Positions 40,341 through 64,000 of a stretch of 64,000 bases of DNA are shown in pieces. The notes below the pieces were generated by a model. That model did not search any database and was not told the origin of the DNA. It was given only the letters and a program-made list of their open reading frames with translations. The stretch lies in the NCBI GenBank assembly GCA_937625935.1, contig OW569380.1, forward strand, positions 1-64,000, written 5' to 3'. How positions within the stretch are numbered: position 1 is the first letter of the stretch; every line of letters starts with the position of its first letter. The position numbers and the translations under genes were made by a program. This stretch comes from Tetramitus jugosus (Eukaryota; Protista; Heterolobosea).

Positions 40341-40361
40341 AATAAATTCTCACCGAAGTTT

Positions 40362-42408: not shown

Positions 42409-42455
42409 GTTGTCTTCAGAATCAATGAGTTTATCAATTTATACCAAGCGAGATG

Positions 42456-43679: not shown

Positions 43680-43810
43680 CACCACATCTGTCAAGCCACA
43701 AAACCTCGAAATTAAATCCAATTGAGAGAATTCCACCATGATATCCTCTGCACTTGGACTACGGTTGTCTTCAGAATCAATGAGTTTATCAATTTATACC
43801 AAGCGAGATG

Positions 43811-44179
43811 CTATTTCTTGATTCTCAGACCAATTTGACCCAATTGTGCACCATTTACCTTATCTTTCAATAGAATAACAGAGCCTGGGAATTGTTGAGA
43901 GAAGAATTCAATCGTCCTGTTCTTGAGAAGTAACTTGGGTGCTTCATCTAGAGTGTTGACACGATCCATAAGGGATTGTGTGAGAAAAGTGTATTTTTCA
44001 GAAGGTAGCAATTTTCTTAACTTTGTCCTAATGTATGCCTTTAGTCCGTAGATGTTGTCCTCCTTTCTCATGGCTTCCAAAGTCATCAAAAGTTCCTCTT
44101 TGCTTTGTTTTCCATCTTCAACATCATTGGCATATTGTTGGATAACATTCAAGATCTCACTTAGCTCTTTCCTTTCCAT
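43811..44179 (-). CDS. Hypothetical protein family 'A', copy 2
   Basis: Identical to copy 1. Confidence 0.65.
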   Translation of the reverse strand: MERKELSEILNVIQQYANDVEDGKQSKEELLMTLEAMRKEDNIYGLKAYIRTKLRKLLPSEKYTFLTQSLMDRVNTLDEAPKLLLKNRTIEFFSQQFPGSVILLKDKVNGAQLGQIGLRIKK

Positions 44180-44648
44180 GATTTATGTTGGCGAGTCGAT
44201 GATTTTTTGTAGATATGACCGTTAAAGAATTTGTTAAAAATAGTCTTCGCTTGGTTATTGGTGGAAATTATTGTATTGCGAACATTCTTCACATGTATCC
44301 TGCCATTTCACTATTGGTCGCCAGAGAGTATCCGGCAGGAAAATCAATCTCTGCACTCGAATATTAACAAGATGTGGAATCCGATGTTTATTGATAAAAA
44401 ATGACTCAAAATATGACGGTTAGACCAAGGTTTTCCAGGATGCAGTGTCGATCTCGTTGTATTTAACATGGTTCCCTTCGCCTCGAAGCACCTTGTGGAT
44501 ATAGAGAGTGGATTCAAGTAGCCTGTACATGTTCAAAGTTGAGTCCTGTGAACTAGTTCCTTGTAAAGTACACCTTATTCTAAATCGTTTGACAAGGTTG
44601 TTCCTTTGATATCAGATGTTATATTTCAAGCTTTTTTTTATCAATCAT

Positions 44649-45034
44649 CTATTCAGTTTCTTCCCTTTCTAGCTCCTGTTCGAATCTCTGAACGGTTTCC
44701 TTGACACCCTCAACAAACTGCTCAAGATAGAACAGTTCTTCTTCTTCCAGAAAAATAGAAAGAGTTTTAGTAGTGAAAAGGTGAGCTTCATCCACAGCTC
44801 GATTCAAATTTCCTCTTCCTAATTCTTGAAGAGCTCTTCGAGCTGTTTGTTTTCTTCTTGCGAGAGACCTTGTAAAAAACAAGTACTTGATTATTGGATC
44901 TTTTGACAAGATGTAGTAATTTCGTCCTTTTCCTTCTAAGAAACCACGGAATGCACAGGTATGGGTGCTGATCCAGCGAGAAAGTCAATGATAACGGTCT
45001 TAAAAGAAACAAATCCAAAATTTGACCTATTCAT
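44649..45034 (-). pseudogene. Family 'B' small helical protein, frameshifted duplicate
   Basis: Identical to the 43294 copy. Confidence 0.6.
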
Positions 45035-45165
45035 CACCACATCTGTCAAGCCACAAAACCTCGAAATTAAATCCAATTGAGAGAATTCCACCATGATATC
45101 CTCTGCACTTGGACTACGGTTGTCTTCAGAATCAATGAGTTTATCAATTTATACCAAGCGAGATG

Positions 45166-45537
45166 CTATTTCTTGATTCTCAGACCAATTTGACCCAATT
45201 GTGCACCATTTACCTTATCTTTCAATAGAATAACAGAGCCTGGGAATTGTTGAGAGAAGAATTCAATCGTCCTGTTCTTGAGAAGCAACTTGGGAGCTTC
45301 GTATAGATCGTCATAACGATCAAAAATAGAGTCCACAAAGATACGTCGTTTCTCTGGGGGCAGGAACTCTTTGTACTTTACCCCAAAGCTAATCATCAAC
45401 GACCTAAGTCTGTGGATGCTGGTGTTCTTTCTCAATGCTTCCAAAGTAATTAAAAACTCTTCTCTATGATCTTCGTCAATCTCCTCTGCATTTTTTTTGA
45501 AGATATCCAATGTGTCTCTTAACAATTTCCAATCCAT
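45166..45537 (-). CDS. Hypothetical protein family 'A', divergent copy
   Basis: Last ~43 aa identical to copies 1/2; N-terminal part diverged but alignable. Confidence 0.7.
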   Translation of the reverse strand: MDWKLLRDTLDIFKKNAEEIDEDHREEFLITLEALRKNTSIHRLRSLMISFGVKYKEFLPPEKRRIFVDSIFDRYDDLYEAPKLLLKNRTIEFFSQQFPGSVILLKDKVNGAQLGQIGLRIKK

Positions 45538-45759
45538 GATTCGTTGTTTTGATAAAAGTTTTCAGTACATGAGAAGATGGCGCCAAAAAACCGGTGATGA
45601 TAAGTCCGCCTGAAGATGAAAAATCGAACTCAACCAAAGCATCCAACGAGTTATCATTTATGTGAAGACAACAGCAACAACCATCTTGCTCTCATCACGT
45701 TCTCAGACACAAGGTTGATTACAAGTTTAATAAGAAGGAGGAACTTTTTGCTGTTGTAT

Positions 45760-47165: not shown

Positions 47166-48698
47166 ATGTCGCACTGCAAGACTGTCCTAATTGCCACAGT
47201 TGTGCTTTTGCTCGTGTTGACCACCTTGCTTTCACTGCCTAGTCTTTCTGAAGCTAAAAAACCAAGATCCAAGTCACAATCTCACCAGCATGCTCATTCC
47301 CACCAAGATCACAAGTCCAAGAGAAGCTCGTCCTCCAATTCAGATAGCCCATGTTCTTCTTCATTGGACATTGAGGATGATCCAGAGCTCGATGCTGCCG
47401 TTGAACGCGCAAGACAAAGATTCTTAGCAACGAGACCACATCCGTTTGATCGATTGACATCGACTCTGTTGGTGCCAAAATCGTCTTCGTCATTGTCTTC
47501 GACATCGTGGTCCAGAGGATCGTTTGATCAGAATCGTTTGGCTTATCCTGCTAGTTGTGTCAAGATGACGTACATGGTGAGTGCAGTGCAGTGGTGCCTC
47601 TCTCAAAAGCTCAAATTCAACTGTTTGGATCATCATGTGAGACCAATGATCATGGTGAGCTCTAATTTGGAGACTGGTGTCGTGGTGGACTTTGTGACTG
47701 GTGCTCCCAATTTGCCTCACTTGGACACTGCCAATGCCACTTTTTATCAATGGCTTGCAAAGCGTAACTATACTCAGGAATGGATGACCAAGAGACAATT
47801 GTTGGAGAGTCAAGTTGTTTTGCACAAGACTTATCCTACGAACAGTGGTGTTTTGTTGGGCGCTGAAGGATTAGCTAGAAACATGTTTGGCGGCAATTTG
47901 ATGAACACAAAGTGTACTGCTTCCTTGTTGGCCGAGATTGTGTCTGGAAAGCTGTTCCCAGAGGCACGTGAATACTTTATGGAACTCTTGTACCATCCAT
48001 TGGACTCCTATACTTGCTATGGACGTGGATTACCACCTGGTTCAATCATTTATACCAAGACTGGTAATGCGTATGATACGGTTGAAGAGATTGCCTATGT
48101 TTTGCTACCAAACGGCAAGCAATTCATTCTATCAACATTTACCAATGGTTATGAACCATCTGAGCCAAAGTTTGATACTCTCTCTTACTATATTCAATTG
48201 ATTATCGAAGAAGCAAAGTTAGACGAGGGATTGCCACCAATGCTCGAGTTTGATGTATCTTCCAGCAACTTCTTCTCCAGTGGTGATTGGTTGAATGGAC
48301 AAGCCAAGGACATGTACGGCTCCTCGTACAAGTACAATGTGCAAAGTGGACAACAACAGGCTGGTTGGAAGTTCCAAGTTCCAGAAGAAGGTCTCTATGA
48401 GATCTCCATCTGGAATCCAGAGTCATCTACTGCATCCACCAGTGTTCCTTTCACCATTGAGCATGCATCTGGTACTGATACATACAATATGAATCAGAGA
48501 GTGAACGGAGGCAGATGGTCCAAGTTGGACGATCTCTACTTCTTTGCTGGACAGACTTACTCTGTGACATTGGATCGACGCAACTCCCTTGCCAGTAACG
48601 ATGTGCCTTCTGTTTCTGTCAATGCGCTCAAGGTTGCCAAATGGCCAAACTGTGGTGCCATTCCAGGATCTCCATGCCTCTCCAGAGCTCGATTTTAA
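47166..48698 (+). CDS. Secreted serine beta-lactamase/PBP-fold hydrolase with C-terminal carbohydrate-binding-like (golvesin/CBM-type) domain
   Basis: Signal peptide; YPASCVK (SxxK), SSN, KTG; C-terminal AGWKFQVPEEGLYEI..W, NQRVNGGRW. Confidence 0.8.
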   Translation: MSHCKTVLIATVVLLLVLTTLLSLPSLSEAKKPRSKSQSHQHAHSHQDHKSKRSSSSNSDSPCSSSLDIEDDPELDAAVERARQRFLATRPHPFDRLTSTLLVPKSSSSLSSTSWSRGSFDQNRLAYPASCVKMTYMVSAVQWCLSQKLKFNCLDHHVRPMIMVSSNLETGVVVDFVTGAPNLPHLDTANATFYQWLAKRNYTQEWMTKRQLLESQVVLHKTYPTNSGVLLGAEGLARNMFGGNLMNTKCTASLLAEIVSGKLFPEAREYFMELLYHPLDSYTCYGRGLPPGSIIYTKTGNAYDTVEEIAYVLLPNGKQFILSTFTNGYEPSEPKFDTLSYYIQLIIEEAKLDEGLPPMLEFDVSSSNFFSSGDWLNGQAKDMYGSSYKYNVQSGQQQAGWKFQVPEEGLYEISIWNPESSTASTSVPFTIEHASGTDTYNMNQRVNGGRWSKLDDLYFFAGQTYSVTLDRRNSLASNDVPSVSVNALKVAKWPNCGAIPGSPCLSRARF

Positions 48699-50823: not shown

Positions 50824-52158
50824 TTATGATGATACCGAAAGATGAGAGCGATTTTTTGAACTGGCATTCAGCGATTGTTCTGGTGCCCGACTCTGCTTCT
50901 GCAATGAAGTCTTTGCTCCTGTTGATTTTGCTGTGACTCGTTTCATTTTGTAAATTTTTCCATATTCCTCATATATCACCTGCAAGATTCCCCATATTAC
51001 CTCCTCGTCTCCTGCCAAGATCTCCTTCACACTCCACAGATAAGTTGGGTCAATATTTTTCCTCTCTCGAAGTATGGATAGCACCCGATTCACATTATTG
51101 TAGGCACCGGCCGTTCTCGCTGGTTTTCGATCAATTCCCGGTATCGTTCTTCCTTCTAACTTTTCTATAATCTCTGCAAGTTTTGTTCCATTCTTTAGAG
51201 CTTCGATACATTCTTTGGCGATGGAGTTCGTGTCATTCGATGTCAAGTTCGATGTCTCGTACAGAGTAATGCCCAAAGATTCTATCCATTTGATAACTTT
51301 CTCATGTGTTGTGATTCTTTGAAGGAAGGTCATACTACGCAAATCATTAGGTTCCACTATGTGAACTCTTCTTAATTGAGGGGAAGTTTGTGGCGGTGCT
51401 TGTGACACTATGATCTTTGCTTCTGATTTTGGTTGTTTGAGAATACTCACATTTTCTGGTTTTAGTGATATATTGTGCACACTGAAGTTGATTGTGGTTG
51501 GTGTTTTTGGCACTTGCGTACTCATGTTAGTGGATGAGTTATGACGCGTGAGAGATTGCTCGTTGTTGTTAAACCTCCCTGTCCCGACTGTTTTGTTGTT
51601 GAACAAAAGTTGCCGAGTCATCGATGTTACTACACACTCTGGTTTGATTGTATTATCGTGTTTCAAATTCACATATTGCAATGGAGGGGAGTAGGTTGGT
51701 TGTCTTTTGAACAACACTTTCATATTTGACACATGATTGGTCACTGATGAAGTCAGTGAGGCAGCAGAATTGTGCAAGGAATTGTTCAAATGCTGGTAGG
51801 ACATGAATGAAGCACCATGAGTGGAGCTATTATTCAACTCCATTTTCTTTTGTGTCGTTTTCAAATCACTCTCATTCACCAAAGTAGACGAGTAGGGATC
51901 GGATGAAATGGGATTGGGTCTGTGATCATTCGGTCGAAGACAAAATCGAAGTAGGGGAGTATGTAAAGGATGCCTCACATTCGCTGCCTCGTGTAGTTGT
52001 GATTGGTACGAGAAAAGTTCAGAATCTCGTTGTTGTTTCAGTCTACTGGCAATCAAATGAGATATGTCAGTCTTGTGAACTACCTGAGAGGTAGAAGCGA
52101 ATGAGACGACATCAGGAGTTCTGGATTGCATGGTATGCGTTGAGTTAAAATGATACAT
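50824..52158 (-). CDS. Calponin-homology (CH) domain protein
   Basis: WIESLG...LKNGTKLAEIIEKLEG...NNVNRVLSIL...EILAGDEEVIWGIL. Confidence 0.75.
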   Translation of the reverse strand: MYHFNSTHTMQSRTPDVVSFASTSQVVHKTDISHLIASRLKQQRDSELFSYQSQLHEAANVRHPLHTPLLRFCLRPNDHRPNPISSDPYSSTLVNESDLKTTQKKMELNNSSTHGASFMSYQHLNNSLHNSAASLTSSVTNHVSNMKVLFKRQPTYSPPLQYVNLKHDNTIKPECVVTSMTRQLLFNNKTVGTGRFNNNEQSLTRHNSSTNMSTQVPKTPTTINFSVHNISLKPENVSILKQPKSEAKIIVSQAPPQTSPQLRRVHIVEPNDLRSMTFLQRITTHEKVIKWIESLGITLYETSNLTSNDTNSIAKECIEALKNGTKLAEIIEKLEGRTIPGIDRKPARTAGAYNNVNRVLSILRERKNIDPTYLWSVKEILAGDEEVIWGILQVIYEEYGKIYKMKRVTAKSTGAKTSLQKQSRAPEQSLNASSKNRSHLSVSS

Positions 52159-52332
52159 GTATTCAATGAATGATGTCTTCAAAGCAGCAATGCGGGTTTT
52201 GATAATTGTAGTGGAAAACGGACGGCGTAAGAATAGCGTACTCCGACAAACCAAGGGACAATGCCTGATTCCAGAATGAGATTCACGTTAAGGTTCATAG
52301 TAAAACTCATTGATGAACATTAGTCATCTAAT

Positions 52333-52719
52333 TTATTCAGCTTCCACCAGCTCCAATTCCGTGAAAAATCTCTGTATGGTTTTCTTGACACCATCGACAT
52401 ATTCGTCGAAACTTTCAAGGTTTTCTTTAAGTTCAGAGAGGAGATTAACTGAAACAAGACGAGCTTCATCTACGGCTCTCTCCAAATTTTCTTTACCTAA
52501 TTGTTGCAGAGCTCTGCGAGCAGTTTGTTTCCTTTTTGCTAGCGATCTTGCACAAAATGCATAGCGAATTATTGGGTCGCTAGATGCACCGTAGCTGTTT
52601 CTACCATTTCCTTTCAAGAATGATTTGAATACTCGCTCTGGAGTCGGTTCCTCTCCAGTTGTCCCGAACCGGCAGAGCAGAAATGGAGGTAACTCGATAT
52701 GGAATTTGCAATCGGGCAT
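52333..52719 (-). CDS. Family 'B' small helical protein, intact copy
   Basis: 128-aa ORF with DPIIRY..RSLAKRKQTARRALQQLG..NLERAVDEA, homologous to three degraded copies upstream. Confidence 0.75.
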   Translation of the reverse strand: MPDCKFHIELPPFLLCRFGTTGEEPTPERVFKSFLKGNGRNSYGASSDPIIRYAFCARSLAKRKQTARRALQQLGKENLERAVDEARLVSVNLLSELKENLESFDEYVDGVKKTIQRFFTELELVEAE

Positions 52720-52811
52720 CGAGCAACCCGATCGTAAAATGTGATTCGAGCAGATTGGAGGTCTACGACCCTATCGGTCCTCACGAACCGTTCGTGACAT
52801 AGCGTTAACAC

Positions 52812-53258
52812 TTATAATTTTCTCATGTTCTTGTTGATGTATTCTTCGATACGAGCGTTACCATCCTTACTCATCTTTCTATCGAAGTGTATTCCTGGTC
52901 CTAACTTTTCTGTAATTAACTTCATAAACATCTTATTATCGAATTCAAGTAAGGTATAATGTCTAATCTTAAGTAAAGCATGAACATGAAGACATTTCGT
53001 CTTAGGGCCTATCTCTAAAGCTGCTACAATATCACCAGTCTTGACATCAGGAGTATCAAAAACGTGGCCTTTTTCTCGTTCACTACTTTTAACAAGTACA
53101 TATTTTTCGATCATTTCGGGACTTAACATCTCCTTGATTGTATTCCAAAATAACTCCTTGTATTCTTGATAAGATTCTTCATACCCCGAAAATCTTTTGT
53201 TAGAATTGATTGTAAGGAAGAAGTTGCTTGGTCTTATCTGTCGTTTTTTATCATTCAT
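52812..53258 (-). CDS. Stand-alone HUH endonuclease (rolling-circle Rep nuclease domain)
   Basis: Motif I FFLTIN, motif II EIGPKTKCLHVHALL, motif III EEYINK; 148 aa from ATG 53258. Confidence 0.75.
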   Translation of the reverse strand: MNDKKRQIRPSNFFLTINSNKRFSGYEESYQEYKELFWNTIKEMLSPEMIEKYVLVKSSEREKGHVFDTPDVKTGDIVAALEIGPKTKCLHVHALLKIRHYTLLEFDNKMFMKLITEKLGPGIHFDRKMSKDGNARIEEYINKNMRKL

Positions 53259-53277
53259 TTTTATCACTGTAAGAAAA

Positions 53278-53655
53278 ATGCCAATCGAATATACCATGGA
53301 ATTCAACGATAACACTAACACAGAGAAAGCTGTAGATGAACAACCGAAAGTTGAAGAAATACCAGCTAAGGTTGAAGAAATACAACCGAAAACTGTAGAA
53401 ATACAACCGAAATTTGAAGAAATACAACCAGAGATTACTGAAGAAGCTGTTAAATTAGACTTTAATGCTATTGTCAAGGAGATAGAAGCTAAGAAAGAAC
53501 CAAAGAAAGAAGAGAAACCACCAGCACCTAAGTTTGTTGGTGGAATTTTAATCAGACCTCCTAAAGATACAGATGAACAACCAAAGATGAAAACATCTGA
53601 AATGATTGGTTATGGAGTTATAGCCACTTCGTTGTTCTCCTTGCTATTTCTGTAA
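53278..53655 (+). CDS. Small acidic protein with 7-aa (V/F)EEI(Q/P)xK repeats and C-terminal TM
   Basis: 21-bp repeats at ~53350-53430; hydrophobic C-terminus. Confidence 0.75.
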   Translation: MPIEYTMEFNDNTNTEKAVDEQPKVEEIPAKVEEIQPKTVEIQPKFEEIQPEITEEAVKLDFNAIVKEIEAKKEPKKEEKPPAPKFVGGILIRPPKDTDEQPKMKTSEMIGYGVIATSLFSLLFL

Positions 53656-53679
53656 AGTATTATTCATCTGACTATTAAA

Positions 53680-54783
53680 ATGTCAGATGAATACGACGCC
53701 ATGTTATCCTTCTTAAAGTTAGGAAAGATACCAGACGACTTCAGTAAAAATCAATTGTCTCGTTTTAGGAAGAAGTTAGCCAATGTTCAAGTAGACTCAT
53801 CTGATCGTTTGGTAAGGGATGAAAAGGTTATTGTTCAACCAACAGATAAGAATAAGATTCTTCATGATCTTTATCATAATACTTCAACTGGATACTGTGG
53901 TATTCAAAAGTTATACACAAGAACGAAGGAAAATTACGATGGAATAACAAGAGAAGATGTAGCAAACTATCTCAAGAGTGATTCGATCAATCAAAGAATG
54001 ACTAAACCTCCTAAGCATAGAGTTGTTAGACCGATTATTTCAAGTAAGAAGTTAGAACGAGTTCAAATTGATTTAGTTGATATGTCTACTCTTAGTTGGC
54101 ATAACAATAGACATAATTGGATTTTAACTGCAATTGATCATTTCAGTAAGTATGCTTGGGCTTTTCCAATCAAGAAGAAAAGTAAGGAAGGAGTTAGAGC
54201 TGCATTGGATCAACTTCCTATTGGTATTTCAGTTCTTCAATCAGACAATGGATCTGAATTCAATAATAACTTGGTTAAGGAATATTGTTCAAAGCGAAAC
54301 ATTAAGCATGTCATGAGTACACCTTATACTCCTCAAACCAATGGAGCAGTTGAAAAATTCAATGGAACTCTTAAGTCTATGTTGTTCAAGTATTTGGCTG
54401 ATAAAGGAGTCAAGAGATGGATCGATCAGTTACCTAATTTGATTGAGAATTACAACACAAGTTATCATCATACGATTAGAATGAGTCCAAAGAATGCTTA
54501 CGATAATAATGTCAATGTTAAACCTTTGATTGAAAAACAAGCTAAGAAGATGGTTCAACCTGATGCTTCTAGATTGAAACGAGGTGATTTAGTTCGTATT
54601 GTTCTGATCAAGGATCGTTACGAGAAGAAATATACAGCCAATTATTCTCAGGATATTTTCAAGATTAGTTCAGTGAGTAGAAATGCAAATGCTCAATATC
54701 GATTAGACGATCTTGAAGGAAAGCCTTGGGGTAGAGTTTACTATCGAAACGAGTTATTGCATGTAACGAAAACAGATTTGTAA
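53680..54783 (+). CDS. Retroviral-type (rve) integrase, Polinton/Maverick-like
   Basis: RVQIDLVDM, ILTAIDHFSKYAW, LQSDNGSEF, PQTNGAVEKFNGTLK (intact DDE), YNTSYHHTIRMSP, GDLVRI. Confidence 0.95.
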   Translation: MSDEYDAMLSFLKLGKIPDDFSKNQLSRFRKKLANVQVDSSDRLVRDEKVIVQPTDKNKILHDLYHNTSTGYCGIQKLYTRTKENYDGITREDVANYLKSDSINQRMTKPPKHRVVRPIISSKKLERVQIDLVDMSTLSWHNNRHNWILTAIDHFSKYAWAFPIKKKSKEGVRAALDQLPIGISVLQSDNGSEFNNNLVKEYCSKRNIKHVMSTPYTPQTNGAVEKFNGTLKSMLFKYLADKGVKRWIDQLPNLIENYNTSYHHTIRMSPKNAYDNNVNVKPLIEKQAKKMVQPDASRLKRGDLVRIVLIKDRYEKKYTANYSQDIFKISSVSRNANAQYRLDDLEGKPWGRVYYRNELLHVTKTDL

Positions 54784-54805
54784 TTATTTTTCTATAGTAA
54801 AACAA

Positions 54806-56047
54806 ATGTCAATCATAGGAAACAACGAAATCTTTTACTCACCTGAATTACAGGCCGCAGAGTATTATGACTCAAGATTAGAACGAATTGTCGGTGAGAA
54901 ACTTAGAATGATTCTGATTGCAGATCAGGCTCCGACTCCAAGTTTGAATGCTCAACAGATTTTCAGAATCAATAACAATCAAGGTAATAAGATGATTACT
55001 AAGCCAATTCTAACTAATTATGTTAGTCAAGTTACCGCAACTGGTACACCAACTACATTAGCTCTGGTTGATTACTTCGGAGTCTTTATTTACGATCGTA
55101 TTGAATTGTGGCAATCTGGTGTTCAAATCTCTCAAGTTACTGGACAACAAATGTACAATAACCTTGTTCAACATAATGATAGTGATGAACTTACAATCTT
55201 GAATGATCAAGTTGGTGGAGGTTTGACTGATGCTGAAAGAACAACCTTGGCTTTGACTGAACAGACTTTCTATCTTGATTTGTCTCAACATTTCTCTATC
55301 TTCTCTATTCCTATGGAATTGTTTTTACTTGATGGTCCTTTGGAAGTTAGAATTTACTATGCTCAAGGTCCAGCTACCAAGTATATCAGAAATGTTGCAG
55401 GTACCAATCCAACGTTCTCCTTCACTAAATCATCTGAGTTAATTGTGACTTACAATAATGTTGGTCTACCTTTGTATGAATCAACTGTTCAAAGAGCAAA
55501 GGAAGGAAAGGTTGTTAAGTTTGTTCACGATTATATCAATGTTCCATTGAGTATCACAAGTTCTGCTGTGAATCAAAACTTCAATATCTCTCAATTGGCT
55601 GATAATGATGTGATCCTAATTAATATCACTCAAAGATTGATGTCAGATTTGAACTCTGCTTCATCTCCGACTTATACAAACTTCCAGAAAATTCCTAAGT
55701 ATACCTTGAAGTCTCAAGGTAGATTCATTGCTGGTGCTGAGTTTGATTACTTGGATAGATACATTAGAAAGGTGTATATCAATAATCTTGGGTTCTTGGG
55801 TAGTGAAACATTAAGAAACTTGAATGTTTATCCAATCTGTTACGCTAATGATTTGGCTGAAACATTTGGTAATGATACTAACGATTACACTGGATCTAAG
55901 AATTTCAATGGAGTTACTGATGCTCAATTGATGTTGACATACGATACTGCACCTGCTGCATCCGAGATTCTTTGTAATATCGTTGTTGCAAAGAGATACG
56001 CTATCATTGATGGTAAGATCCGTCAGATTGTCAACACCGTTGTATAA
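54806..56047 (+). CDS. Putative double-jelly-roll major capsid protein
   Basis: 413 aa, beta-rich; YDRIELWQSGVQISQ, FYLDL..F..IPM..L..LEVRIY and C-terminal YPICYA...YTGSKNFNGVTDAQL mirror the conserved NCLDV/PLV MCP patterns (iel.iggq.id; lyiPl; Y.ysFal..psGs.Nfs.i). Confidence 0.78.
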   Translation: MSIIGNNEIFYSPELQAAEYYDSRLERIVGEKLRMILIADQAPTPSLNAQQIFRINNNQGNKMITKPILTNYVSQVTATGTPTTLALVDYFGVFIYDRIELWQSGVQISQVTGQQMYNNLVQHNDSDELTILNDQVGGGLTDAERTTLALTEQTFYLDLSQHFSIFSIPMELFLLDGPLEVRIYYAQGPATKYIRNVAGTNPTFSFTKSSELIVTYNNVGLPLYESTVQRAKEGKVVKFVHDYINVPLSITSSAVNQNFNISQLADNDVILINITQRLMSDLNSASSPTYTNFQKIPKYTLKSQGRFIAGAEFDYLDRYIRKVYINNLGFLGSETLRNLNVYPICYANDLAETFGNDTNDYTGSKNFNGVTDAQLMLTYDTAPAASEILCNIVVAKRYAIIDGKIRQIVNTVV

Positions 56048-56058
56048 ACACTTTTCAT

Positions 56059-56088
56059 AATTCATATCTCATCGATGAGATATGAATT
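56059..56088. terminator. Perfect 30-bp palindrome 3' of MCP
   Basis: AATTCATATCTCATCGATGAGATATGAATT. Confidence 0.7.
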
Positions 56089-56118
56089 CAAGTTAGATTT
56101 ATTCATTATACTAATAAA

Positions 56119-56487
56119 ATGTCTGGATATAATCTTCAAGTAATTAAACCGTACGACGCGCTGATTAAAGGTATTAGTCCTTCTTTGGCTAGGCCGTATG
56201 AAGATGCTATTAAAAATATACCTCAGAAAAAGTTTGGTCAAAGATTGATTGACTTTGTTAAAGGAATCCCTGAGAGATTGAATTTTGGAATCGATTATAG
56301 TATCGTTCAAACTGATAAACTCAGTAAGAGTGTTGGTTCGAATATTAGAAACATTCTAGGTGGTCAAGGTCTTGCTGGTGCTCTTAATGATGGAGCCAAG
56401 GGTATTGCAATTACAGGTGGACTTCTTACTGCCCCTATTGCCTTAGCTGCTGCTGCAATTGCCGCTGTTATCTTAATTAAACTATAA
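56119..56487 (+). CDS. Small Gly/Ala-rich protein with C-terminal TM (candidate virion membrane protein)
   Basis: 122 aa; GGLLTAPIALAAAAIAAVILIKL. Confidence 0.75.
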   Translation: MSGYNLQVIKPYDALIKGISPSLARPYEDAIKNIPQKKFGQRLIDFVKGIPERLNFGIDYSIVQTDKLSKSVGSNIRNILGGQGLAGALNDGAKGIAITGGLLTAPIALAAAAIAAVILIKL

Positions 56488-56498
56488 GTTATGTAGTA

Positions 56499-56521
56499 TA
56501 TCAGATGGAATCCATCTGATA
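56499..56521. terminator. Palindrome between convergent genes
   Basis: TATCAGATGGA-A-TCCATCTGATA. Confidence 0.7.
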
Positions 56522-56526
56522 CACAT

Positions 56527-57456
56527 TTATTCTTCTTCGTCAACGACTGTTTCTTCTTCGTCAATGATCGTTTCTTCGTCGCTGTCATAGTTTGGAATCC
56601 CCCAAGAAAACTCATCTTCATCTTCAACTTCAACATGTTGAGTTATTTCAGGTTGTTTCCTAGATAAAATATCATCATTGAAAGCGTCATGTAACATATC
56701 TTCAGTTAGAGGCTTCAATAGATTTTGTTTAAAATATTCAACGATATCAGTTATATATATATGTCTATCTAGGTACATATTATACCCTCTACTTGATATA
56801 TATTTTCTACCTAAATTATTCATCAATCTATCATATACAGTGGTTGGATTAATAATGAATTTTTGTGAGTTGTAAGTTGTTGTGTACATTCCATTTTTCA
56901 ATGTAAAAAGAAGAGATAATTTTGGTTTCTTCTTATATAAACCAATCATTACAAACTCTCGAGGATTCTTGAAGAATGGGTAAGCTGTTTCCATAGGGGA
57001 ATCTTCTATTTTATCCATAGGGCGCGATAGATGAGAAATATCCCTCTCATCAAAGTTAACATGTCTAGGATATTGTTTGATATACTTATGAAGATCAAGG
57101 AAAATATGAACGTATGTTCTATTTAATGTATCGTTGAGTATATCGTTGGCATCTAGATTTTCATCGAAAAATCCACTTGTATAGTTCCATTTACTGAGTT
57201 TTCTCTTAAGGAAATAATAAACTATTTCCATTGGGATATAGTATGTTAGATCTTTTGAATGTTCGTGTTCATATCTCAGATCTTTTAGCTCAAACAGTAA
57301 TTTTGATCCATCTAATATTCCTATTACTTCTAAATATAAACTTCTATACGTAAGTCCATCGAAACGTATTGTTTGTAGACATTGATGATCTGTTCCTACT
57401 AATATTTCAGGGAATGACCAAGTTCTGTCTTCGATATATAATCTTTCGTACTTCAT
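56527..57456 (-). CDS. Hypothetical protein with acidic tail
   Basis: 309-aa ORF, TAATAAATG start context. Confidence 0.8.
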   Translation of the reverse strand: MKYERLYIEDRTWSFPEILVGTDHQCLQTIRFDGLTYRSLYLEVIGILDGSKLLFELKDLRYEHEHSKDLTYYIPMEIVYYFLKRKLSKWNYTSGFFDENLDANDILNDTLNRTYVHIFLDLHKYIKQYPRHVNFDERDISHLSRPMDKIEDSPMETAYPFFKNPREFVMIGLYKKKPKLSLLFTLKNGMYTTTYNSQKFIINPTTVYDRLMNNLGRKYISSRGYNMYLDRHIYITDIVEYFKQNLLKPLTEDMLHDAFNDDILSRKQPEITQHVEVEDEDEFSWGIPNYDSDEETIIDEEETVVDEEE

Positions 57457-57463
57457 TTATTAC

Positions 57464-57487
57464 TTTACAGATAATTTTATCTGTAAA
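57464..57487. terminator. Palindrome 3' of the 57499-57735 ORF
   Basis: TTTACAGATAA-TT-TTATCTGTAAA. Confidence 0.65.
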
Positions 57488-57498
57488 ATGTATCTATT

Positions 57499-57735
57499 TT
57501 ATCCAATTAAGTTGTTCAACAAAATACCTATACATGCAGACATGAATCCAACATATAAAGTTTCTTTCATTTTAGGTGATATCATAATTGGTTTTTGTTC
57601 AACATTTTGAACTTCAGTGATATATTCATTCGTTGTTTTAATTACAACCGTATACGGTTCTTCGTCTGTAAAGTGAGCTTTAGTATTTTCAATTATTTCG
57701 TTTATTCTTGATGCTTCTGGTGTTGATTCTGTCAT
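57499..57735 (-). CDS. Small protein with C-terminal TM
   Basis: 78 aa; LYVGFMSACIGILLNNLIG. Confidence 0.7.
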   Translation of the reverse strand: MTESTPEASRINEIIENTKAHFTDEEPYTVVIKTTNEYITEVQNVEQKPIMISPKMKETLYVGFMSACIGILLNNLIG

Positions 57736-57781
57736 ATTTTATAATCTTTTCATATTTTTATTCGTCTTTGTATCGATTCAA

Positions 57782-57942
57782 ATGAAATAACTAAAAGGTG
57801 AGAAGGGTGTGAGGAACGTTTTTAAAAGTTTTCTATATTCATTTCTTTCAACTCAAAATACTTTATATCTCCACTTCTCACCCTTCTCACCTTTTTAGTT
57901 ATTTTAATATATTATATAGATAGACTAAAGGATAAATAGAGA
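57782..57942 (+). repeat. Origin-like inverted repeat, copy L (internally palindromic, GGTGAGAAG iterons)
   Basis: Reverse complement of 63538-63699 apart from a ~20-nt diverged centre. Confidence 0.9.
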
Positions 57943-57989
57943 TTGAAAAAAATAATCAAACGATATTAATGATAACTAGATGTTTTTGG

Positions 57990-58014
57990 ATCAATCTCAT
58001 TTAATGAGATTGAT
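57990..58014. terminator. Palindrome 3' of the helicase gene
   Basis: ATCAATCTCATT-T-AATGAGATTGAT. Confidence 0.7.
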
Positions 58015-58022
58015 TCTATCGA

Positions 58023-60080
58023 TTAATCAGATGGATCATGTTCAGATGATACAACCCATGAAACTTCTTTAGTATAAGTAGATCGATTGGCAGCATACAC
58101 AAAATCTCTTGATTCCATACTTGATTTAAATTGTTGTGAGTTAATTTTATAACCGCTAATATCATTTAAAGTTTTATATTCTTTAAAACCTGCAAATTTG
58201 AGAACCAATTTATATTTCACGTTATTACCTATGTTATTTCTATTAAAGGTTGAAAATTGAAGTTGACTAATGGATTCTGCAATCCAAACATCAATAGGAT
58301 CAGCTGACTTACCCTTCATCAACTCAAGAAGTTTTGTTTTAGGATAATCTTGAATAACGAAGGAACTGATATCACGTTTCATGAAAAATGTAAACAACGA
58401 ATTCATTACATTATCATCCTCAAGCATAGCAAGAATTTTCGTAGAATGATCGTAATCCTCCTTGTATTTAGGAACACATTTAAAACAAGCGAATCTTCTA
58501 TCGTTGTCATCTATTTTGAAGTATTCCCATTTATTAGTGAAGAATATAGCAAATAAAAAATTATCAACAGTTGCGTATTCTTCGTATAACCTACGTATCT
58601 CAATCTTATCTTCACTGATAATGTTCTTTAATTTTTCTGCATTTTCTCCAAAACCTTGAACTTCGTCTCCAATTATGCCAAGTATGTTTTGTAATGATCC
58701 ATTCTTTTCACCCGTGATCTGATTTATATGATTTATCATTCTAATAACAAATTCACCAAATAATTTAGATATAATTTTTGCCAAAATTCCTTTACCAGTA
58801 CCAGTTGTAGATGATAAAAGCATCGCAACGTCAGTTTTGAGATGAGGATATTGAACCTTCTTGGCAATAAAATTAAGGAACCATTCAAGATAATTATCAT
58901 TACATTCAACTAACATATGGAAATGATCCATGAACAAACCAATCGTAGGGTCACATGAATATCTTGAAGTTTGTTTTTCAGCGTTACCTTTTTCTGTAAC
59001 AATACATTCATAATTTGGTAAGACTTTATATGGGAATCCGTAGAATGTATTAATTCTTCTAGTGTCCAACCAACTCAATGGATAAGGAATAAATACTTCT
59101 TCGAGGTAAACATGTGTCTTTAGCAACAAGTCATGTATCTCTTTTTCAGTATAAGTGATATATCTTGGTACAGTTTCACCTGCAATCAATCTGTTCTTGA
59201 GACTAGATGTAGTTTCCCATTTTCTCTGTTCAGCTGCATACTCGTTATCATTTAATTTTCTAGAAAATCCAGACGATCTATGGTATCCATTACTTGCTAA
59301 TTTTTCAACAACATAACGAGCGATTTTACCTTCAACCTTCGTATGTTTGACATAAAACCAATGGTTATTACCAATACTACGTATACCAGCAGTTGCCTCA
59401 AGGGCACACATCATTGATTCGAAATCATCATAATCTCCCTTGGCATCATGATAGGTGAAAGTATCCTTAGGATTCAAGAATCTTAATCTTGCAGTATGTC
59501 TAGGATCATCAAATTCTTCATCATCTTGAATCTCTTCAAGAGTACCTACTGAATCTTCAATGTTAGGAGGTTGAATAATAGTATCGACAAAATCAGGGGC
59601 AGCATTATCGATATTCGGAATTTGACCAACTGAAGCTTCCCATTCACAATCAATGTATGCAACTCTTTCACCAGTTATGTATGATCCACAACCAGGTAAA
59701 AGAAATTCTTCACCTTTACCTTCAATATTAATAGTGACTGTTTGATAGTCAAGAGGATTAACAATACTTTGAAATACTGCAGTATTGTCCATACCAATAC
59801 CATATTTCTTTCTAAACTGTTCTTCGGTCATCTCGAATACAGAGACAAACTTATCAATATCACTGTCTTCCAATGTCATGGTGTGATCACACCATGAAGG
59901 TGACGCATCTAAAGGACATGAAACGATTAAAAATTTATCGTCACAAGAGAAATAATCTCCATTAACATTCAAACCAAGTTTCTTAAAATATTCACCAACT
60001 GCTTTTACTTCATTCTGAGTTGGAACATCAAACGGATCAGTCATTACCTTCTGTAATCTTTTTGTACTTACTCTACTCAT
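58023..60080 (-). CDS. D5-like / SF3-type helicase (DUF5906 / NrS-1-like C-terminal ATPase)
   Basis: Walker A TTGTGKG, Walker B IIGDE, motif C IFFTN, arginine finger DRRF. Confidence 0.9.
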   Translation of the reverse strand: MSRVSTKRLQKVMTDPFDVPTQNEVKAVGEYFKKLGLNVNGDYFSCDDKFLIVSCPLDASPSWCDHTMTLEDSDIDKFVSVFEMTEEQFRKKYGIGMDNTAVFQSIVNPLDYQTVTINIEGKGEEFLLPGCGSYITGERVAYIDCEWEASVGQIPNIDNAAPDFVDTIIQPPNIEDSVGTLEEIQDDEEFDDPRHTARLRFLNPKDTFTYHDAKGDYDDFESMMCALEATAGIRSIGNNHWFYVKHTKVEGKIARYVVEKLASNGYHRSSGFSRKLNDNEYAAEQRKWETTSSLKNRLIAGETVPRYITYTEKEIHDLLLKTHVYLEEVFIPYPLSWLDTRRINTFYGFPYKVLPNYECIVTEKGNAEKQTSRYSCDPTIGLFMDHFHMLVECNDNYLEWFLNFIAKKVQYPHLKTDVAMLLSSTTGTGKGILAKIISKLFGEFVIRMINHINQITGEKNGSLQNILGIIGDEVQGFGENAEKLKNIISEDKIEIRRLYEEYATVDNFLFAIFFTNKWEYFKIDDNDRRFACFKCVPKYKEDYDHSTKILAMLEDDNVMNSLFTFFMKRDISSFVIQDYPKTKLLELMKGKSADPIDVWIAESISQLQFSTFNRNNIGNNVKYKLVLKFAGFKEYKTLNDISGYKINSQQFKSSMESRDFVYAANRSTYTKEVSWVVSSEHDPSD

Positions 60081-60229
60081 CTTTCTTTCTTTCTTTTTAA
60101 TTCTAGAGATATTTTTTATTTCTAGAATTTTTTAAAAAACTTTCAATTCGTTTTAAAAATCATATTTTTAAAAATAAATAAAAAAATTCAATAAAAATAT
60201 ATTTACTATAAAAAATTCATTAATCTTTT

Positions 60230-60260
60230 TCATATCACTTCCATTGTATAAGTGATATGA
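60230..60260. terminator. Hairpin 3' of the 60271-60648 ORF
   Basis: TCATATCACTT-(9 nt)-AAGTGATATGA. Confidence 0.65.
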
Positions 60261-60270
60261 TACTGTATAT

Positions 60271-60648
60271 TCATAAGGTGAATGTAACATTATTTGCATT
60301 GAAGTATTCCATGATACGTTGTCCTGGTTTTCTGTTTGTGAAATATTTTACATGTTCTTTAACCCATTCAATTTCTACAGGCTTAGCTGTTCCATTCATA
60401 ATCTTTGTACATTGATAGTTAAATTTACCGTATAACGACCTCATATCAGTTACCTTAGCCATTGTCTTTTCGTGTTCTAACTTTCGTTGTTTTTCTTCCT
60501 CATGTTTTCTCTTCAATTCTTCATGGAAGAGTCTATTCTTTTCATGGAAATTCTTATTCAGTTGAACTTTACGATCAGCTATTTCTTGTTTAATTGAAGT
60601 AAACAACTCAGATAATTCTTCGATACTCATTTCTTTGATATTTATCAT
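60271..60648 (-). CDS. Hypothetical coiled-coil protein
   Basis: 125-aa ORF. Confidence 0.75.
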   Translation of the reverse strand: MINIKEMSIEELSELFTSIKQEIADRKVQLNKNFHEKNRLFHEELKRKHEEEKQRKLEHEKTMAKVTDMRSLYGKFNYQCTKIMNGTAKPVEIEWVKEHVKYFTNRKPGQRIMEYFNANNVTFTL

Positions 60649-60677
60649 TTTTTAAATGATAAATATATATTTATTTT

Positions 60678-62036
60678 TTATTTTTTTATTAATAATCGTT
60701 CATCTAAAATTGGTAGTATGAATTTTGTACTTGTACATATACATAATTTTTGATAATCCATTATCTGTTGCATACGTGGTTCTTTTTTTACTTCCCATCT
60801 TTTAGCTGAAACTTCAACTGAAGCTAAAGTACCTAGATCTAGAGAACCTAACATAAAAGACTGTCCGTGATTTCTGAAACAACGTAAATGAACGTTTTTC
60901 TTATCACCTGAAATGGTTAAATAAGCATTTTCATTATCATGTGTTCTATTACAAACTAAACAATAACATGATTTTTTACGTTTCAACTTGATAGTTGTAC
61001 CTAAAGATTCTTCAACATTAAATGAATCTTCATGATATGGAGCGATTCTATGAAACATGTTAATTGCTCCTTCAATTTCACTCTCTGATACTTCTCCTCC
61101 AATAAATTTAGTCTTTTTCATTTTATCGATAGTTATAGGACATACTAACAGTTTAGATGTATTTAAAATCAATCCAACTAAAGAGTATCTAAATCTATTT
61201 AGATGGCTCAACTTTATATTATTGATATCTTCACTATCATTATACACGATTTTTTTACCATTGTATGTCCAATACTTATCGAACTTCATTCTATTTGTAC
61301 CAGCTTTTCTATTATACGGGAGTCTAAATTGTTGTAATGAACTATACACACTAGGATCTACAAACTTTTTCACATTATCAGGAAGATGACTAACCACATG
61401 ATCATAAAAAACTTTTGCTTCCTCATGATCTGGATGATAAACTCCATCAACGATGATATGAACACTATATTTCTTTCCTTTCTCTATCATACCAGTTGAT
61501 TCATAAACGATGATGTTCTTTACAGGGTCTATTTCAACTCCCCAAAGTTTACAACATTCGATAATTAAGCTACACATGTAATCTATAAAATAGTCAAACC
61601 ATTCATCTGTTACCCATGAATCCTCAGTTTCAATATCAAATCTAGGTTTCTGTGGTCCTTCTGTAATAACTTCAAAGAAGTTTAAATGTTCTAATGAAGC
61701 TCTACCGCCAGTATGATTGAGCTTTAAAAACGAATACTTATATTCAGTTGGAGGAATATTAGTTGTTCTAAACTCGAATTTTTTTACATCTTCATCTTTG
61801 ATTTCAGTGATTGTATTATAACCCCCAGCTTGGTGAATCATTTTTTCGAGATCATTGATATTCATCATTGAATATAATCTTCGATTGTTTTCGTCACAGT
61901 GACATATGATAATATCCCCATGAGCCTTCACATTATTCGATAATAATGTTGGAGTTCCATTTTTTATCGAATCTTGACTATCTTTGAGATAATAGTATGC
62001 TTCATGTACAACTGTATCCTTGTAAGTAAACTTCAT
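60678..62036 (-). CDS. Archaeo-eukaryotic primase (PrimPol / NCLDV-herpes clade) with C-terminal Zn finger
   Basis: FFEVI..QKPRFDIE (motif I), KYSVHII (II), VDPSVYSSLQQFRL..NRK (III), CLVCNRTHDNEN...CFR. Confidence 0.9.
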   Translation of the reverse strand: MKFTYKDTVVHEAYYYLKDSQDSIKNGTPTLLSNNVKAHGDIIICHCDENNRRLYSMMNINDLEKMIHQAGGYNTITEIKDEDVKKFEFRTTNIPPTEYKYSFLKLNHTGGRASLEHLNFFEVITEGPQKPRFDIETEDSWVTDEWFDYFIDYMCSLIIECCKLWGVEIDPVKNIIVYESTGMIEKGKKYSVHIIVDGVYHPDHEEAKVFYDHVVSHLPDNVKKFVDPSVYSSLQQFRLPYNRKAGTNRMKFDKYWTYNGKKIVYNDSEDINNIKLSHLNRFRYSLVGLILNTSKLLVCPITIDKMKKTKFIGGEVSESEIEGAINMFHRIAPYHEDSFNVEESLGTTIKLKRKKSCYCLVCNRTHDNENAYLTISGDKKNVHLRCFRNHGQSFMLGSLDLGTLASVEVSAKRWEVKKEPRMQQIMDYQKLCICTSTKFILPILDERLLIKK

Positions 62037-62097
62037 TTTTATTATTTGTTAGATTTTTTTAAATTTAGTTTTTTAAAAATTCTTCATTTATTTTTAA

Positions 62098-62127
62098 AAT
62101 CATACAATTTATTTCAATTGTATGATT
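62098..62127. terminator. Hairpin 3' of the 62159-62734 ORF
   Basis: AATCATACAATT-(6 nt)-AATTGTATGATT. Confidence 0.65.
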
Positions 62128-62158
62128 CATTGTTACATTGTTCATTCATAGTGTGAAG

Positions 62159-62734
62159 TTAAAATTCATCAGTAATTGTTGCAATGGTTAAGTATAAAAG
62201 ATCATGAAAGAATCTAAATCGAGTACCTTCAATTTCAATTGTACTATCATCCATATGCATACATGTTACATTGATTAATTCCTTACAAAAGATTCTAAAA
62301 GTCATTGGAATATCCTTCGTATAAACTGTTGTTTCAATTGAACCTATCCTCAAGAATTCTTTCATAATTATTAGAACAACATCATCGTATAGATTTCCAT
62401 CGTATGTAGGCATAATTTCAACTGTTACGAAACGAATCAATGATGTTACAAATAAGATGTCATCCCATTCAAGTTTAGTACCAAACACCATTGATAATTG
62501 ATTGAAAACTCCTTGAAGATCTTTGAAAAACATTTTAGTCAATTCAATGTTTTCATCTGAATAAATCATTTCAAAAGGGTCTGGATCTTTACCTAAGAAT
62601 CTTAAAGTACATAGACGTACATGTAATTCAAATATCTTTAAATCTTTCTTGATATCATCAGATGGATCTAATGCAAGTTTATAAGTTTCATAGATGATAT
62701 CAAGCTCTCTGTTGTAGCGTTCTAAGTCGTTCAT
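62159..62734 (-). CDS. Hypothetical helical protein (paralog of 62967-63512)
   Basis: 191-aa ORF; ELDIIYETYKLAL, SLIRFVTVEIMPTY. Confidence 0.8.
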   Translation of the reverse strand: MNDLERYNRELDIIYETYKLALDPSDDIKKDLKIFELHVRLCTLRFLGKDPDPFEMIYSDENIELTKMFFKDLQGVFNQLSMVFGTKLEWDDILFVTSLIRFVTVEIMPTYDGNLYDDVVLIIMKEFLRIGSIETTVYTKDIPMTFRIFCKELINVTCMHMDDSTIEIEGTRFRFFHDLLYLTIATITDEF

Positions 62735-62749
62735 TTATTACTATGCGTA

Positions 62750-62776
62750 TAATATGTATCCATTGGATACATATTA
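62750..62776. terminator. Palindrome 3' of the 62780-62980 ORF
   Basis: TAATATGTATCCA-T-TGGATACATATTA. Confidence 0.7.
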
Positions 62777-62779
62777 GTT

Positions 62780-62980
62780 TTAACAATCAATTACTCCATC
62801 CAGGAAATCGATAAGTCCTTCAAGGTTCTTACGTTCATCTTCTAACTCTTTAAGTTTCTCTTGAACATCATTGATTAATGCTTTTGTAACTTTCATTTCA
62901 TCTTCTTTACATTGAAGTTCTAATTGAAGTTCAATTATAAAGAATTGAAGGTCTTTAATCTCTGAATCAATGTCTATCAT
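62780..62980 (-). CDS. Small coiled-coil protein
   Basis: 66 aa with heptad pattern; overlaps the stop of the upstream ORF. Confidence 0.65.
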   Translation of the reverse strand: MIDIDSEIKDLQFFIIELQLELQCKEDEMKVTKALINDVQEKLKELEDERKNLEGLIDFLDGVIDC

Positions 62981-63512
62981 TGCGTATTGCTTTTAATAGT
63001 ACAAACAATAACTTATGTTGTTCAGGATTTATATCAATCGGTCTTCCATCACGATATTGATCAGATAATTCAATTAATGTTTTAACTAAAACTTTTTCAA
63101 CTACTCTTGTTTCAGTCGATACACTTTTCAATGTATTGATTACAACACGTTCAAACTCTTCATTGTTATAGACGTAGCTGAATGTTGGTAAAACTTCTCG
63201 AGTTAAATAGTTGATTAAACTTCGTCCAATCTTTATATCTTTCCATGTTCCGTAGTCATCGTCTAACCAATCAATGTTGTCTTCTCTTAATGCTTCTCTG
63301 AAGATGTCTCTATATACATCTGAATGAAAACTATAAGATTTCAATGAATGTTCGAACATTGAATAAGCGCTTTCTGATCCTGTTGCTTGAAGTAGATCGT
63401 ATCTAAAGAATACTTTGTCTTCAATGTTTGGTTCAATTAGTATCGCCTTATAGATTCCATGGATAACATCTAGTCCAGCTTCATATTTCAAGATATCCTT
63501 GTATTCGTCCAT
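62967..63512 (-). CDS. Hypothetical helical protein (paralog of 62159-62734)
   Basis: 181-aa ORF; GLDVIHGIYKAIL, SLINYLTREVLPTF. Confidence 0.8.
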   Translation of the reverse strand: MDEYKDILKYEAGLDVIHGIYKAILIEPNIEDKVFFRYDLLQATGSESAYSMFEHSLKSYSFHSDVYRDIFREALREDNIDWLDDDYGTWKDIKIGRSLINYLTREVLPTFSYVYNNEEFERVVINTLKSVSTETRVVEKVLVKTLIELSDQYRDGRPIDINPEQHKLLFVLLKAIRNDRH

Positions 63513-63537
63513 TTATTCATTCAGTCGATTATTTCAT

Positions 63538-63699
63538 TCTCTATTTATCCTTTAGTCTATCTATATAATATATTAAAATAACTAAAAAGGTGAGAAGGGT
63601 GAGAAGTGGAGATATAAAAGTATTATGAAATTTAAAAATGAATATAGAAAACTTTTAAAAACGTTCCTCACACCCTTCTCACCTTTTTAGATGTTTCAT
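63538..63699 (-). repeat. Origin-like inverted repeat, copy R
   Basis: Reverse complement of 57782-57942. Confidence 0.9.
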
Positions 63700-64000
63700 A
63701 TATATTGAGGATAATACGAATGAATAGAACGAAACTAAAAATAATACAAAACGATACCAAAGGATACAAGCAACTCTAATAATGAGTATAAAACTCGATA
63801 TAGTAAAGCTGAGCATAGTCCCTATATAGGGACTGGTATATTAATGCTTAACTCGAAATAGTAATCGATATCAAGTTTATTGAAGCATAGCTTCAATAAA
63901 TATAGAAATAATAATAAGTATGAGAAATGGATATACTTTATAGCACAGCGTTACTATCAATCCCAGTCGTAGTTTATTATACTGGATCATTAATGATCCA

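Follow-up and report, generated by a model that had tools for sequence, protein, structure and literature searches.

The window analysed here comprises 64,000 nucleotides of Tetramitus jugosus (positions 1 to 64,000 of contig OW569380.1, assembly GCA_937625935.1). A telomeric CCCAAA array occupies 1-1150 and, about 52 kb from the chromosome end, an element inserted in a host gene starts at 52660 and continues past the window end at 64000, with 11.3 kb of its length inside the window (Table 1). The host part has 41% GC and long ORFs; from 52800 onward GC is 29-33% and the genes, 13 in all, are tightly packed. The interrupted host gene belongs to a multi-copy family of short genes (40000-45540 and 52333-52659) that includes an exact 1355-bp tandem duplication (42402/43757). 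Another host gene (47166-48698) encodes a beta-lactamase-like domain, below Pfam full length, together with a Golvesin C-terminal domain and a signal-like N-terminus.

Table 1. Features of the element and of its insertion site, in window coordinates
Positions	Strand	Feature	Details
52333..52659	-	Host multi-copy gene interrupted by the insertion
52660..52799	+	140-bp terminal unit, TGT...ACA, left end of the element	51% GC; imperfect 12-bp inverted ends
52781..52797	.	Perfect hairpin forming the inner end of the terminal unit, 15 nt past the HUH stop
52812..53258	-	Predicted stand-alone HUH endonuclease, 148 aa, mriyavirus type	E82, H91, H93, Y140, K143
53278..53655	+	Acidic repeat protein, 125 aa, hydrophobic C-terminus	19 bp from HUH, head-to-head
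53680..54783	+	rve (retroviral-type) integrase, 367 aa	Pfam rve E 6.9e-12; D131/D189/E225 present
54806..56047	+	Likely NCLDV-like double-jelly-roll major capsid protein, 413 aa	Atlas, phmmer
56119..56487	+	122-aa protein, hydrophobic C-terminus	No family match
56527..57735	-	Two ORFs, 309 aa and 78 aa	No family match
57793..57951	+	Left internal inverted repeat	Long hairpin (about 57785-57904) and inner segment of ~50 bp
58023..60080	-	SF3 helicase, D5/P4-primase type, 685 aa	DUF5906 E 6.9e-15, VapE E 2e-9
60271-60648	-	125-aa ORF	No family match above cut-off
60678..62036	-	Likely AEP primase-polymerase (PrimPol), 452 aa, encoded apart from the helicase	DxE, SxH, D motifs; C-terminal zinc finger
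62159..63512	-	Three ORFs, 191, 66 and 181 aa	No family match above cut-off
63529..63687	-	Right internal inverted repeat	Equals the left except for a 17-bp loop patch and one base
63817..64000	.	Short perfect palindromes (three); an ORF opens at 63928	Element leaves the window

Several products could be assigned with differing confidence. The 413-aa protein is likely an NCLDV-like capsid: Atlas placed it at 0.98 to Capsid_N clusters, with low recognition (1779), and its best phmmer match among 1774 ORFs is a Pfam-positive Capsid_N/Capsid_NCLDV protein, the match being weak (E 0.069; hhalign 1.4%); it has one homolog, at 57%. The helicase also matches P4-type phage primases, with no family assignment for its N-terminal half and no match to a Rep-helicase family, and the PrimPol matches Herpes_UL52 below the cut-off (E 0.005). 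Among the 13 proteins encoded in the 11.3 kb we found no A32 packaging ATPase, VLTF2/VLTF3, Mriya48 or other core gene and no reverse transcriptase; the part of the element within the window likewise holds no DNA polymerase B and no tyrosine recombinase. Searches of IMG/VR returned no relatives of the capsid-like protein, the integrase, the helicase or the terminal hairpin, and Rfam gave no match in 52000-64000. We read the element, lodged in a protist gene, as likely being a small DNA virus that forms capsids.

The HUH gene and its family

The predicted HUH gene forms the 3′ part of a 221-aa frame that opens with TTG (52812-53477), and the 73 extra codons of this frame overlap, in antisense, the + strand gene that begins at 53278, in agreement with the sequence-only reading that a 148-aa protein is hidden in a longer, mis-started ORF. 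The ATG at 53258 has the A-rich context seen at other genes of the element (GTGATAAAAATG), which an in-frame ATG at 53297 lacks. Translation of 52812-53258(-) yields FLTIN at residues 14-18, E82-I-G...L-H91-V-H93-ALL and Y140-I-N-K143; this, together with the alignment described below, bears out the three rolling-circle motifs proposed from that ATG. Since homologs are longer at the N-terminus, with a median of 33 residues before T16 in the homolog alignment compared with 15 here, translation may instead start at 53297 and give 161 aa. The frame ends 8 codons past Y140 with no fused helicase, and 4.8 kb separate it from the SF3 helicase ORF (58023-60080), much as had been noted earlier (~5 kb). 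The gene has its own 3′ hairpin as well as its own start context.

We found 246 homologs of the HUH protein at E<=1e-3 in a representative protein library. In an alignment of 149 rows, chosen by similarity to the query and comprising the query and 148 of the 150 homologs listed (the fragments P0113 and P0116 were left out), H91, H93 and Y140 are present in 149/149 sequences, K143 in 148/149 and E82 in 147/149, so that the H-x-H pair and the tyrosine, whose conservation had been singled out as decisive, are invariant. The 150 homologs listed range from 72 to 324 aa (median 168), with 136 at or below 220 aa. Judged from these lengths, the family is stand-alone throughout. No longer, fused relative was found among 7990 scored, a search that is weak because it also missed HUH proteins of 1584-1905 aa. 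Searches with the single HUH sequence returned nothing from a word-index search, IMG/VR, PDB sequences or Pfam, nor from PHROGs with an assigned function.

A search with a 20-sequence HUH alignment identified 54 loci (8 from IMG/VR and 46 from metagenomes), of which 15 encode a 1584-1905-aa protein with a C-terminal HUH domain; in those of the 15 that were inspected, it adjoins the short HUH gene. Gamadviruses carry such a gene pair, an HUH gene beside one for a long HUH protein, for which rolling-circle initiation was proposed (PMC11253617). We infer that the loci with this pair are gamadvirus-like, the loci themselves carrying no taxonomy. The query HUH shares 22-27% identity with the HUH proteins of loci that have the gamadvirus gene pair, and the family profile matches the HUH of one of them (L001) with an hhalign probability of 98.7%, which shows its homology with the mriyavirus-type HUH. 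A quick tree of 113 rows places the query outside the gamadvirus-like group (SH-aLRT 94), among metagenomic relatives; its row for locus L009 is a degenerate paralog and not the HUH. The 12 other proteins of the element have no significant match in the 54 loci, and against the 15 shared gene clusters of the gamadvirus-like loci no element protein scored better than E 0.003. The 125-aa and 122-aa proteins resemble HUH neighbours in L011 and L013 by eye, a likeness that is not significant.

These loci hold further HUH-related genes. The degenerate L009 paralog (244-732) lacks the HxH and lies directly upstream of the intact HUH (profile E 7.5e-7). A 127-aa gene family, cluster 7 of the gamadvirus-like loci (L001, 16 loci; e.g. 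L029 16259-16642), matches the HUH weakly (E 0.003) and is possibly a third, decayed HUH copy. Two small virus-like contigs, L013 (823-8822) and L040 (3317-7807), carry the same HUH family near capsid-like genes, the order in L040 being A32 ATPase, HUH and a Capsid_N/NCLDV capsid gene; both fall beyond the gamadvirus-like group or at its margin.

Structure prediction, which had been proposed as a check, returned an HUH fold. The model built from the family alignment has a pLDDT of 91.5; that from the single sequence has 46, and the fold search with it was uninformative. Among 48,161 solved chains, the top match of the family-based model is the SIRV1 Rep ORF119 (2x3g; Z 7.8, rmsd 2.9, 99 aligned residues, 17% identity), and the best 50 matches include Vientovirus Rep (6.6, 6.3), Helitron (6.3), MVM NS1 (6.0), AAV5 Rep (5.9) and bocavirus NS1 (5.6). 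Taken alone, this Z is middling because HUH entries are mixed with unrelated ferredoxin-like folds in the best 50, and 7.8 falls in the range in which the structural search allows for a mere common arrangement. Foldseek on the PDB ranked ribosomal proteins first and 2x3g 32nd. In BFVD, the best match is an unnamed 793-aa entry (E 2.8e-8, TM 0.75), followed by CRESS Reps, of which there are many among the matches. The HUH profile aligns its E, HxH and YxxK with those of the Rep 9pqf (E 0.007), 11/149 family members match REP_ORF2-G2P, below the cut-off, and Atlas assigns the HUH protein at 0.95 to REP_ORF2-G2P. Because the fold matches, the 9pqf profile alignment, the REP_ORF2-G2P matches and Atlas agree, we regard the assignment as settled: the protein predicted from 52812-53258(-) belongs to the HUH superfamily, with an RRM-like HUH fold. 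H91, H93 and E82 would bind the metal and Y140 would form a 5′-phosphotyrosine.

Gene-end hairpins, the terminal unit and the internal repeats

Perfect hairpins lie 4-32 nt past the stop codon in 12/13 genes of the element, against a background of 0.106. These 12 genes use 11 distinct hairpins, one being common to a convergent pair, and the exception is the integrase gene. The binomial P of 2e-11 is optimistic because the thresholds were set after a first scan. Non-coding stems of at least 9 bp number 11, compared with a mean of 0.23 and a maximum of 2 in 100 shuffles of the non-coding bases. Elsewhere, such hairpins follow 0/8 host genes and 3/130 genes in seven GC-rich gamadvirus-like loci; the counts are 2/9 genes in L013 and 0/16 in L040, two loci with capsid-like genes, and in L009 a 14-bp stem directly follows the HUH stop. 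The Mimivirus early-promoter motif occurs once in the element, inside a gene. Mimiviridae polyadenylate at palindromes of this kind (PMC4402537), and the terminator hairpins of virophages and transpovirons are read as use of the giant-virus transcription machinery (PMC7031253). The element is thus likely helper-dependent, as 12 of its 13 genes follow this giant-virus "hairpin rule".

The same pattern bears on the hairpins that the sequence-only reading had put forward as substrates of the HUH protein. Because hairpins end 12 of the 13 genes, the short ones among those put forward are more likely mRNA-end signals than nick sites. The hairpin at 52781 is likely the 3′-end signal of the HUH mRNA and possibly a nick site. 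Of the three palindromes at 63817-64000, two belong to this class of short, perfect hairpins, which leaves the long hairpin at 57785-57904 as the only proposed substrate of another kind.

To characterize the left end, we used contigs from three runs of one study that contain the element, compared over 51000-60140. In one contig the host gene runs up to 52659 and is followed by sequence resembling the gene's paralogs in the window; this is the empty allele, and the insertion is recent. Among the letter differences listed, one variable site falls within the HUH gene span. Copies of the element differ, since the contig of one run misses 21 bases at 53325-53436, where the 125-aa gene contains a 21-bp tandem repeat, and has other changes. 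Contig breaks at 52660 and 52799 delimit the 140-bp unit as a repeated sequence, at whose ends 10/12 bases match in inverted orientation. Run X1 has three sequences before the unit and two after it, run X2 two before and two after. ATTTG ends one sequence before the unit (X1 only) and begins one sequence after it (X1 and X2), on separate contigs; the chance of such a pair is about 0.002, or up to 0.009 if 4 bp are allowed. This pair, from junctions other than the one at 52660, suggests a 5-bp target duplication around a directly oriented unit, and we consider it probable that the 140-bp unit is directly repeated, LTR-like, at a right end beyond the window. The junctions listed over 51000-60140 include no right junction of this insertion, and the pair could also stem from a lone unit elsewhere. 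Such units may exist in this genome, since the 140-bp unit seems to be present in more copies than the interior, at ~2.4-3.2x interior depth by rough arithmetic on contig depths, which are not copy numbers. In addition, the flank behind the unit matches the unit's end over 7 nt (chance about 4e-4), and the ATTTG junction may therefore be more complex. Two junction-flank motifs found no convincing match in the window, and the unit itself folds no better than shuffles (z 0.3 and -0.6).

We also considered a host LTR retrotransposon as the source of the unit. In these elements, the primer-binding site behind the LTR starts with TGG. Neither sequence behind the unit starts in this way and a primer-binding site is absent; moreover, only two sequences follow the unit (X1, X2), and its hairpin fits the 3′-hairpin pattern of the element. 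We rejected this source.

Each internal inverted repeat spans 159 bp, with hairpins of z -6.3 (left) and -7.0 (right), values reached in 0/200 shuffles. The combination of a long hairpin and an inner segment is similar in layout to a parvovirus ITR. The repeats bracket the helicase and primase genes as a 5.9-kb module (57793-63687), with the HUH gene outside, and the depth of the module equals that of the rest of the element (85.9 vs 98.4 and 49.3 vs 53.5, contigs over 51000-60140). Repeat-flanked, swappable helicase modules occur in PLVs and at poxvirus ends (PMC11296320). The module here could invert, be swapped or replicate as a passenger.

Possible roles of the HUH protein

Based on these observations, we consider that the HUH protein probably nicks the virus origin and so starts rolling-circle replication, for which the element would supply the helicase and primase and a giant virus would likely act as helper, a reading to which we give a probability of about 0.6. 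In this scheme, the separately encoded SF3 helicase would unwind the DNA and the PrimPol would prime the second strand. The element's genes would be transcribed by the giant-virus machinery, as nearly all of them end in a hairpin, and replication would take place upon infection by the helper. A rolling-circle or rolling-hairpin role, as first suggested from the sequence, is plausible. A fixed partnership between the HUH protein and the SF3 helicase lacks support, because the HUH gene lies outside the helicase/primase module and the 12 other proteins are unmatched in the 54 HUH loci.

The ends of the element may offer a route out of the chromosome. If they are direct, exit would obey the logic of "replicational release" known from geminiviruses. 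Were the 140-bp end directly repeated, with an origin inside it, replication that begins with a nick in one copy and ends in the other would yield a circle copied from the chromosome, and no excision would be needed. A unit-plus-one-end piece, cut at TG...CA, would be taken from the rolling-circle product and inserted anew by the rve integrase. We put this forward tentatively, at somewhat less than an even chance. The sequence-only reading had the enzyme peel off or excise the integrated copy; a role in exit agrees with the junctions, which suggest a directly repeated end, but the route would be copying out, not excision. Less probable still is the fuller picture of a giant-virus-dependent mriyavirus relative with LTR-like TG...CA ends, a 5-bp duplication and an rve integrase, which has no RNA stage, copies itself out through its HUH protein and regenerates the two-ended integrase substrate from concatemers. 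If this is true, rolling-circle concatemers would do for the integrase what reverse transcription does for retroviruses.

Alternatively, the HUH protein might act on the long hairpins of the internal repeats, resolving or copying ends as SIRV1 ORF119 or a parvovirus Rep does, the 5.9-kb module being a hairpin-ended passenger or a swappable cassette that it rescues. The two repeats do combine long hairpins with 50-bp inner segments, near-identical over 159 bp, in the ITR-like layout noted above, and swappable modules of this kind have precedents in PLVs and poxvirus ends (PMC11296320); the best structural match of the HUH protein comes moreover from a virus with closed linear ends, whose Rep is stand-alone (PMC4187194). 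However, both repeats lie inside the element and do not enclose the HUH gene, the depth of the module matches that of the remaining sequence, and the contigs listed at the left repeat showed no hairpin-turn joint, which makes such a role unlikely.

We find it more doubtful that the HUH protein resolves concatemers into unit genomes, or closes them, for packaging, replication being started by the PrimPol and the SF3 helicase alone. The HUH gene does lie near structural genes: in the element it is beside the capsid-like gene, in L040 it stands between those for the A32 ATPase and the capsid, and in L013 a capsid-like gene is close by. Gene order in such small genomes says little, however. HUH enzymes that have been characterised carry out both initiation and termination within one cycle, and for this reason the initiation and packaging roles are not exclusive. 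The primase motifs, lost in most mriyaviruses (PMC11253617), look intact in the element, and no more than about half of the Zora genomes, and 28% of those of VC218, have an HUH gene (10.64898/2026.06.19.733378). In the literature examined, however, we found no precedent for a packaging role.

No support was found for the proposal that a Rep of CRESS or parvovirus type was broken up, leaving the HUH nuclease and the helicase as products of separate genes. CRESS Reps are among the structural matches and both halves lie within the element, yet the helicase matches DUF5906/VapE and P4-type primases and no Rep helicase, and the HUH family is short and stand-alone, its known fusions being to an unrelated long protein; we regard a split Rep as highly improbable. 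A shadow frame or inactive relic, as might be suspected of a single protein that matches nothing in Pfam, PHROGs with a function or PDB sequences and whose start codon is a prediction, is hardly credible given 246 homologs, invariant catalytic residues, a confident model, the gene's own start context and 3′ hairpin, and a single variable site in its span among the letter differences listed.

Relation to known viruses

The closest published counterparts of the enzyme are in mriyaviruses, all of which have a stand-alone HUH with SIRV1 ORF119 as its best match (Z 7.7), a separate helicase and a proposed rolling-circle initiation, a role itself inferred from conservation (PMC11253617). The element resembles them in its stand-alone HUH with motifs I-III, in the ORF119 match (7.8 here), in its separate helicase and in having no polymerase B in the part within the window. 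It differs in its rve integrase with an intact DDE, an integration gene being "notably absent" in mriyaviruses as described (10.64898/2026.06.19.733378), in its AT-rich DNA, the hairpins after its genes, a primase separate from the helicase and an HUH outside the gamadvirus-like clade. Mriyavirus genomes measure 35-45 kb; the part of the element within the window, 11.3 kb.

Zoravirus (VC102) and VC218 PLVs have an HUH gene in about half and 28% of genomes, and RVE in 57% and 62%, respectively (10.64898/2026.06.19.733378). The element shares with them an NCLDV-like capsid (likely here), HUH, RVE and variable replication modules, whereas the text examined in that report mentions no hairpins, integration site or LTR-like end. 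The arrangement of a stand-alone HUH with a separate helicase was thus already known from published work (PMC11253617; 10.64898/2026.06.19.733378). SIRV1 ORF119 (2x3g) is likewise a stand-alone, single-tyrosine HUH of similar size, but it belongs to an archaeal virus with closed linear ends and a dimeric flip-flop mechanism (PMC4187194). In CRESS and parvovirus Reps, by contrast, the HUH is fused to SF3; here the helicase is separate and of D5/P4 type.

Virophages and transpovirons of Mimiviridae also have hairpins after their genes (PMC7031253), and mavirus-type virophages integrate with rve (PMC11296320); the capsid look-alikes of the element are NCLDV-like, however, and the passages on virophages and transpovirons mention no HUH. 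The PLVs of Tyrannomonas regina resemble the element in being endogenous in a protist, with direct ends, a primase-helicase and an atypical rve (PMC12747079). Direct ends are rare in PLVs and occur in T. regina only with tyrosine recombinases, typically with no target duplication, and the term HUH does not occur in the paper describing them (PMC12747079). The element, unlike these, has a TG...CA unit with what is likely a 5-bp duplication, and its part within the window encodes no tyrosine recombinase. Endogenous regions related to Mriyaviricetes exist in algal assemblies (10.1101/2025.04.19.649669).

The enzyme is thus not new but a further member of a known family, and the element is likely a mriyavirus-related integrating virus. 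New here are the giant-virus-type hairpins after 12/13 genes, the 140-bp TG...CA end and the ITR-like inverted repeats around the replication module; a literature search that covered few subscription journals found no paper on an HUH and capsid element with LTR-like direct ends, nor on the hairpin rule in a mriyavirus-like virus. The locus ties a virus with a mriyavirus-type HUH to a protist chromosome and suggests for it a virophage-like life, whereas mriyaviruses are inferred to replicate autonomously in the nucleus. The insertion is recent, with a mapped left end and an empty allele, DNA runs of the organism are public, the 148-aa enzyme is easy to express and there are three candidate substrates. 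The locus thus makes testable how rve-integrated polinton-like viruses and virophages exit from the chromosome and also whether mriyaviruses replicate by the rolling-circle mode that was proposed from conservation alone.
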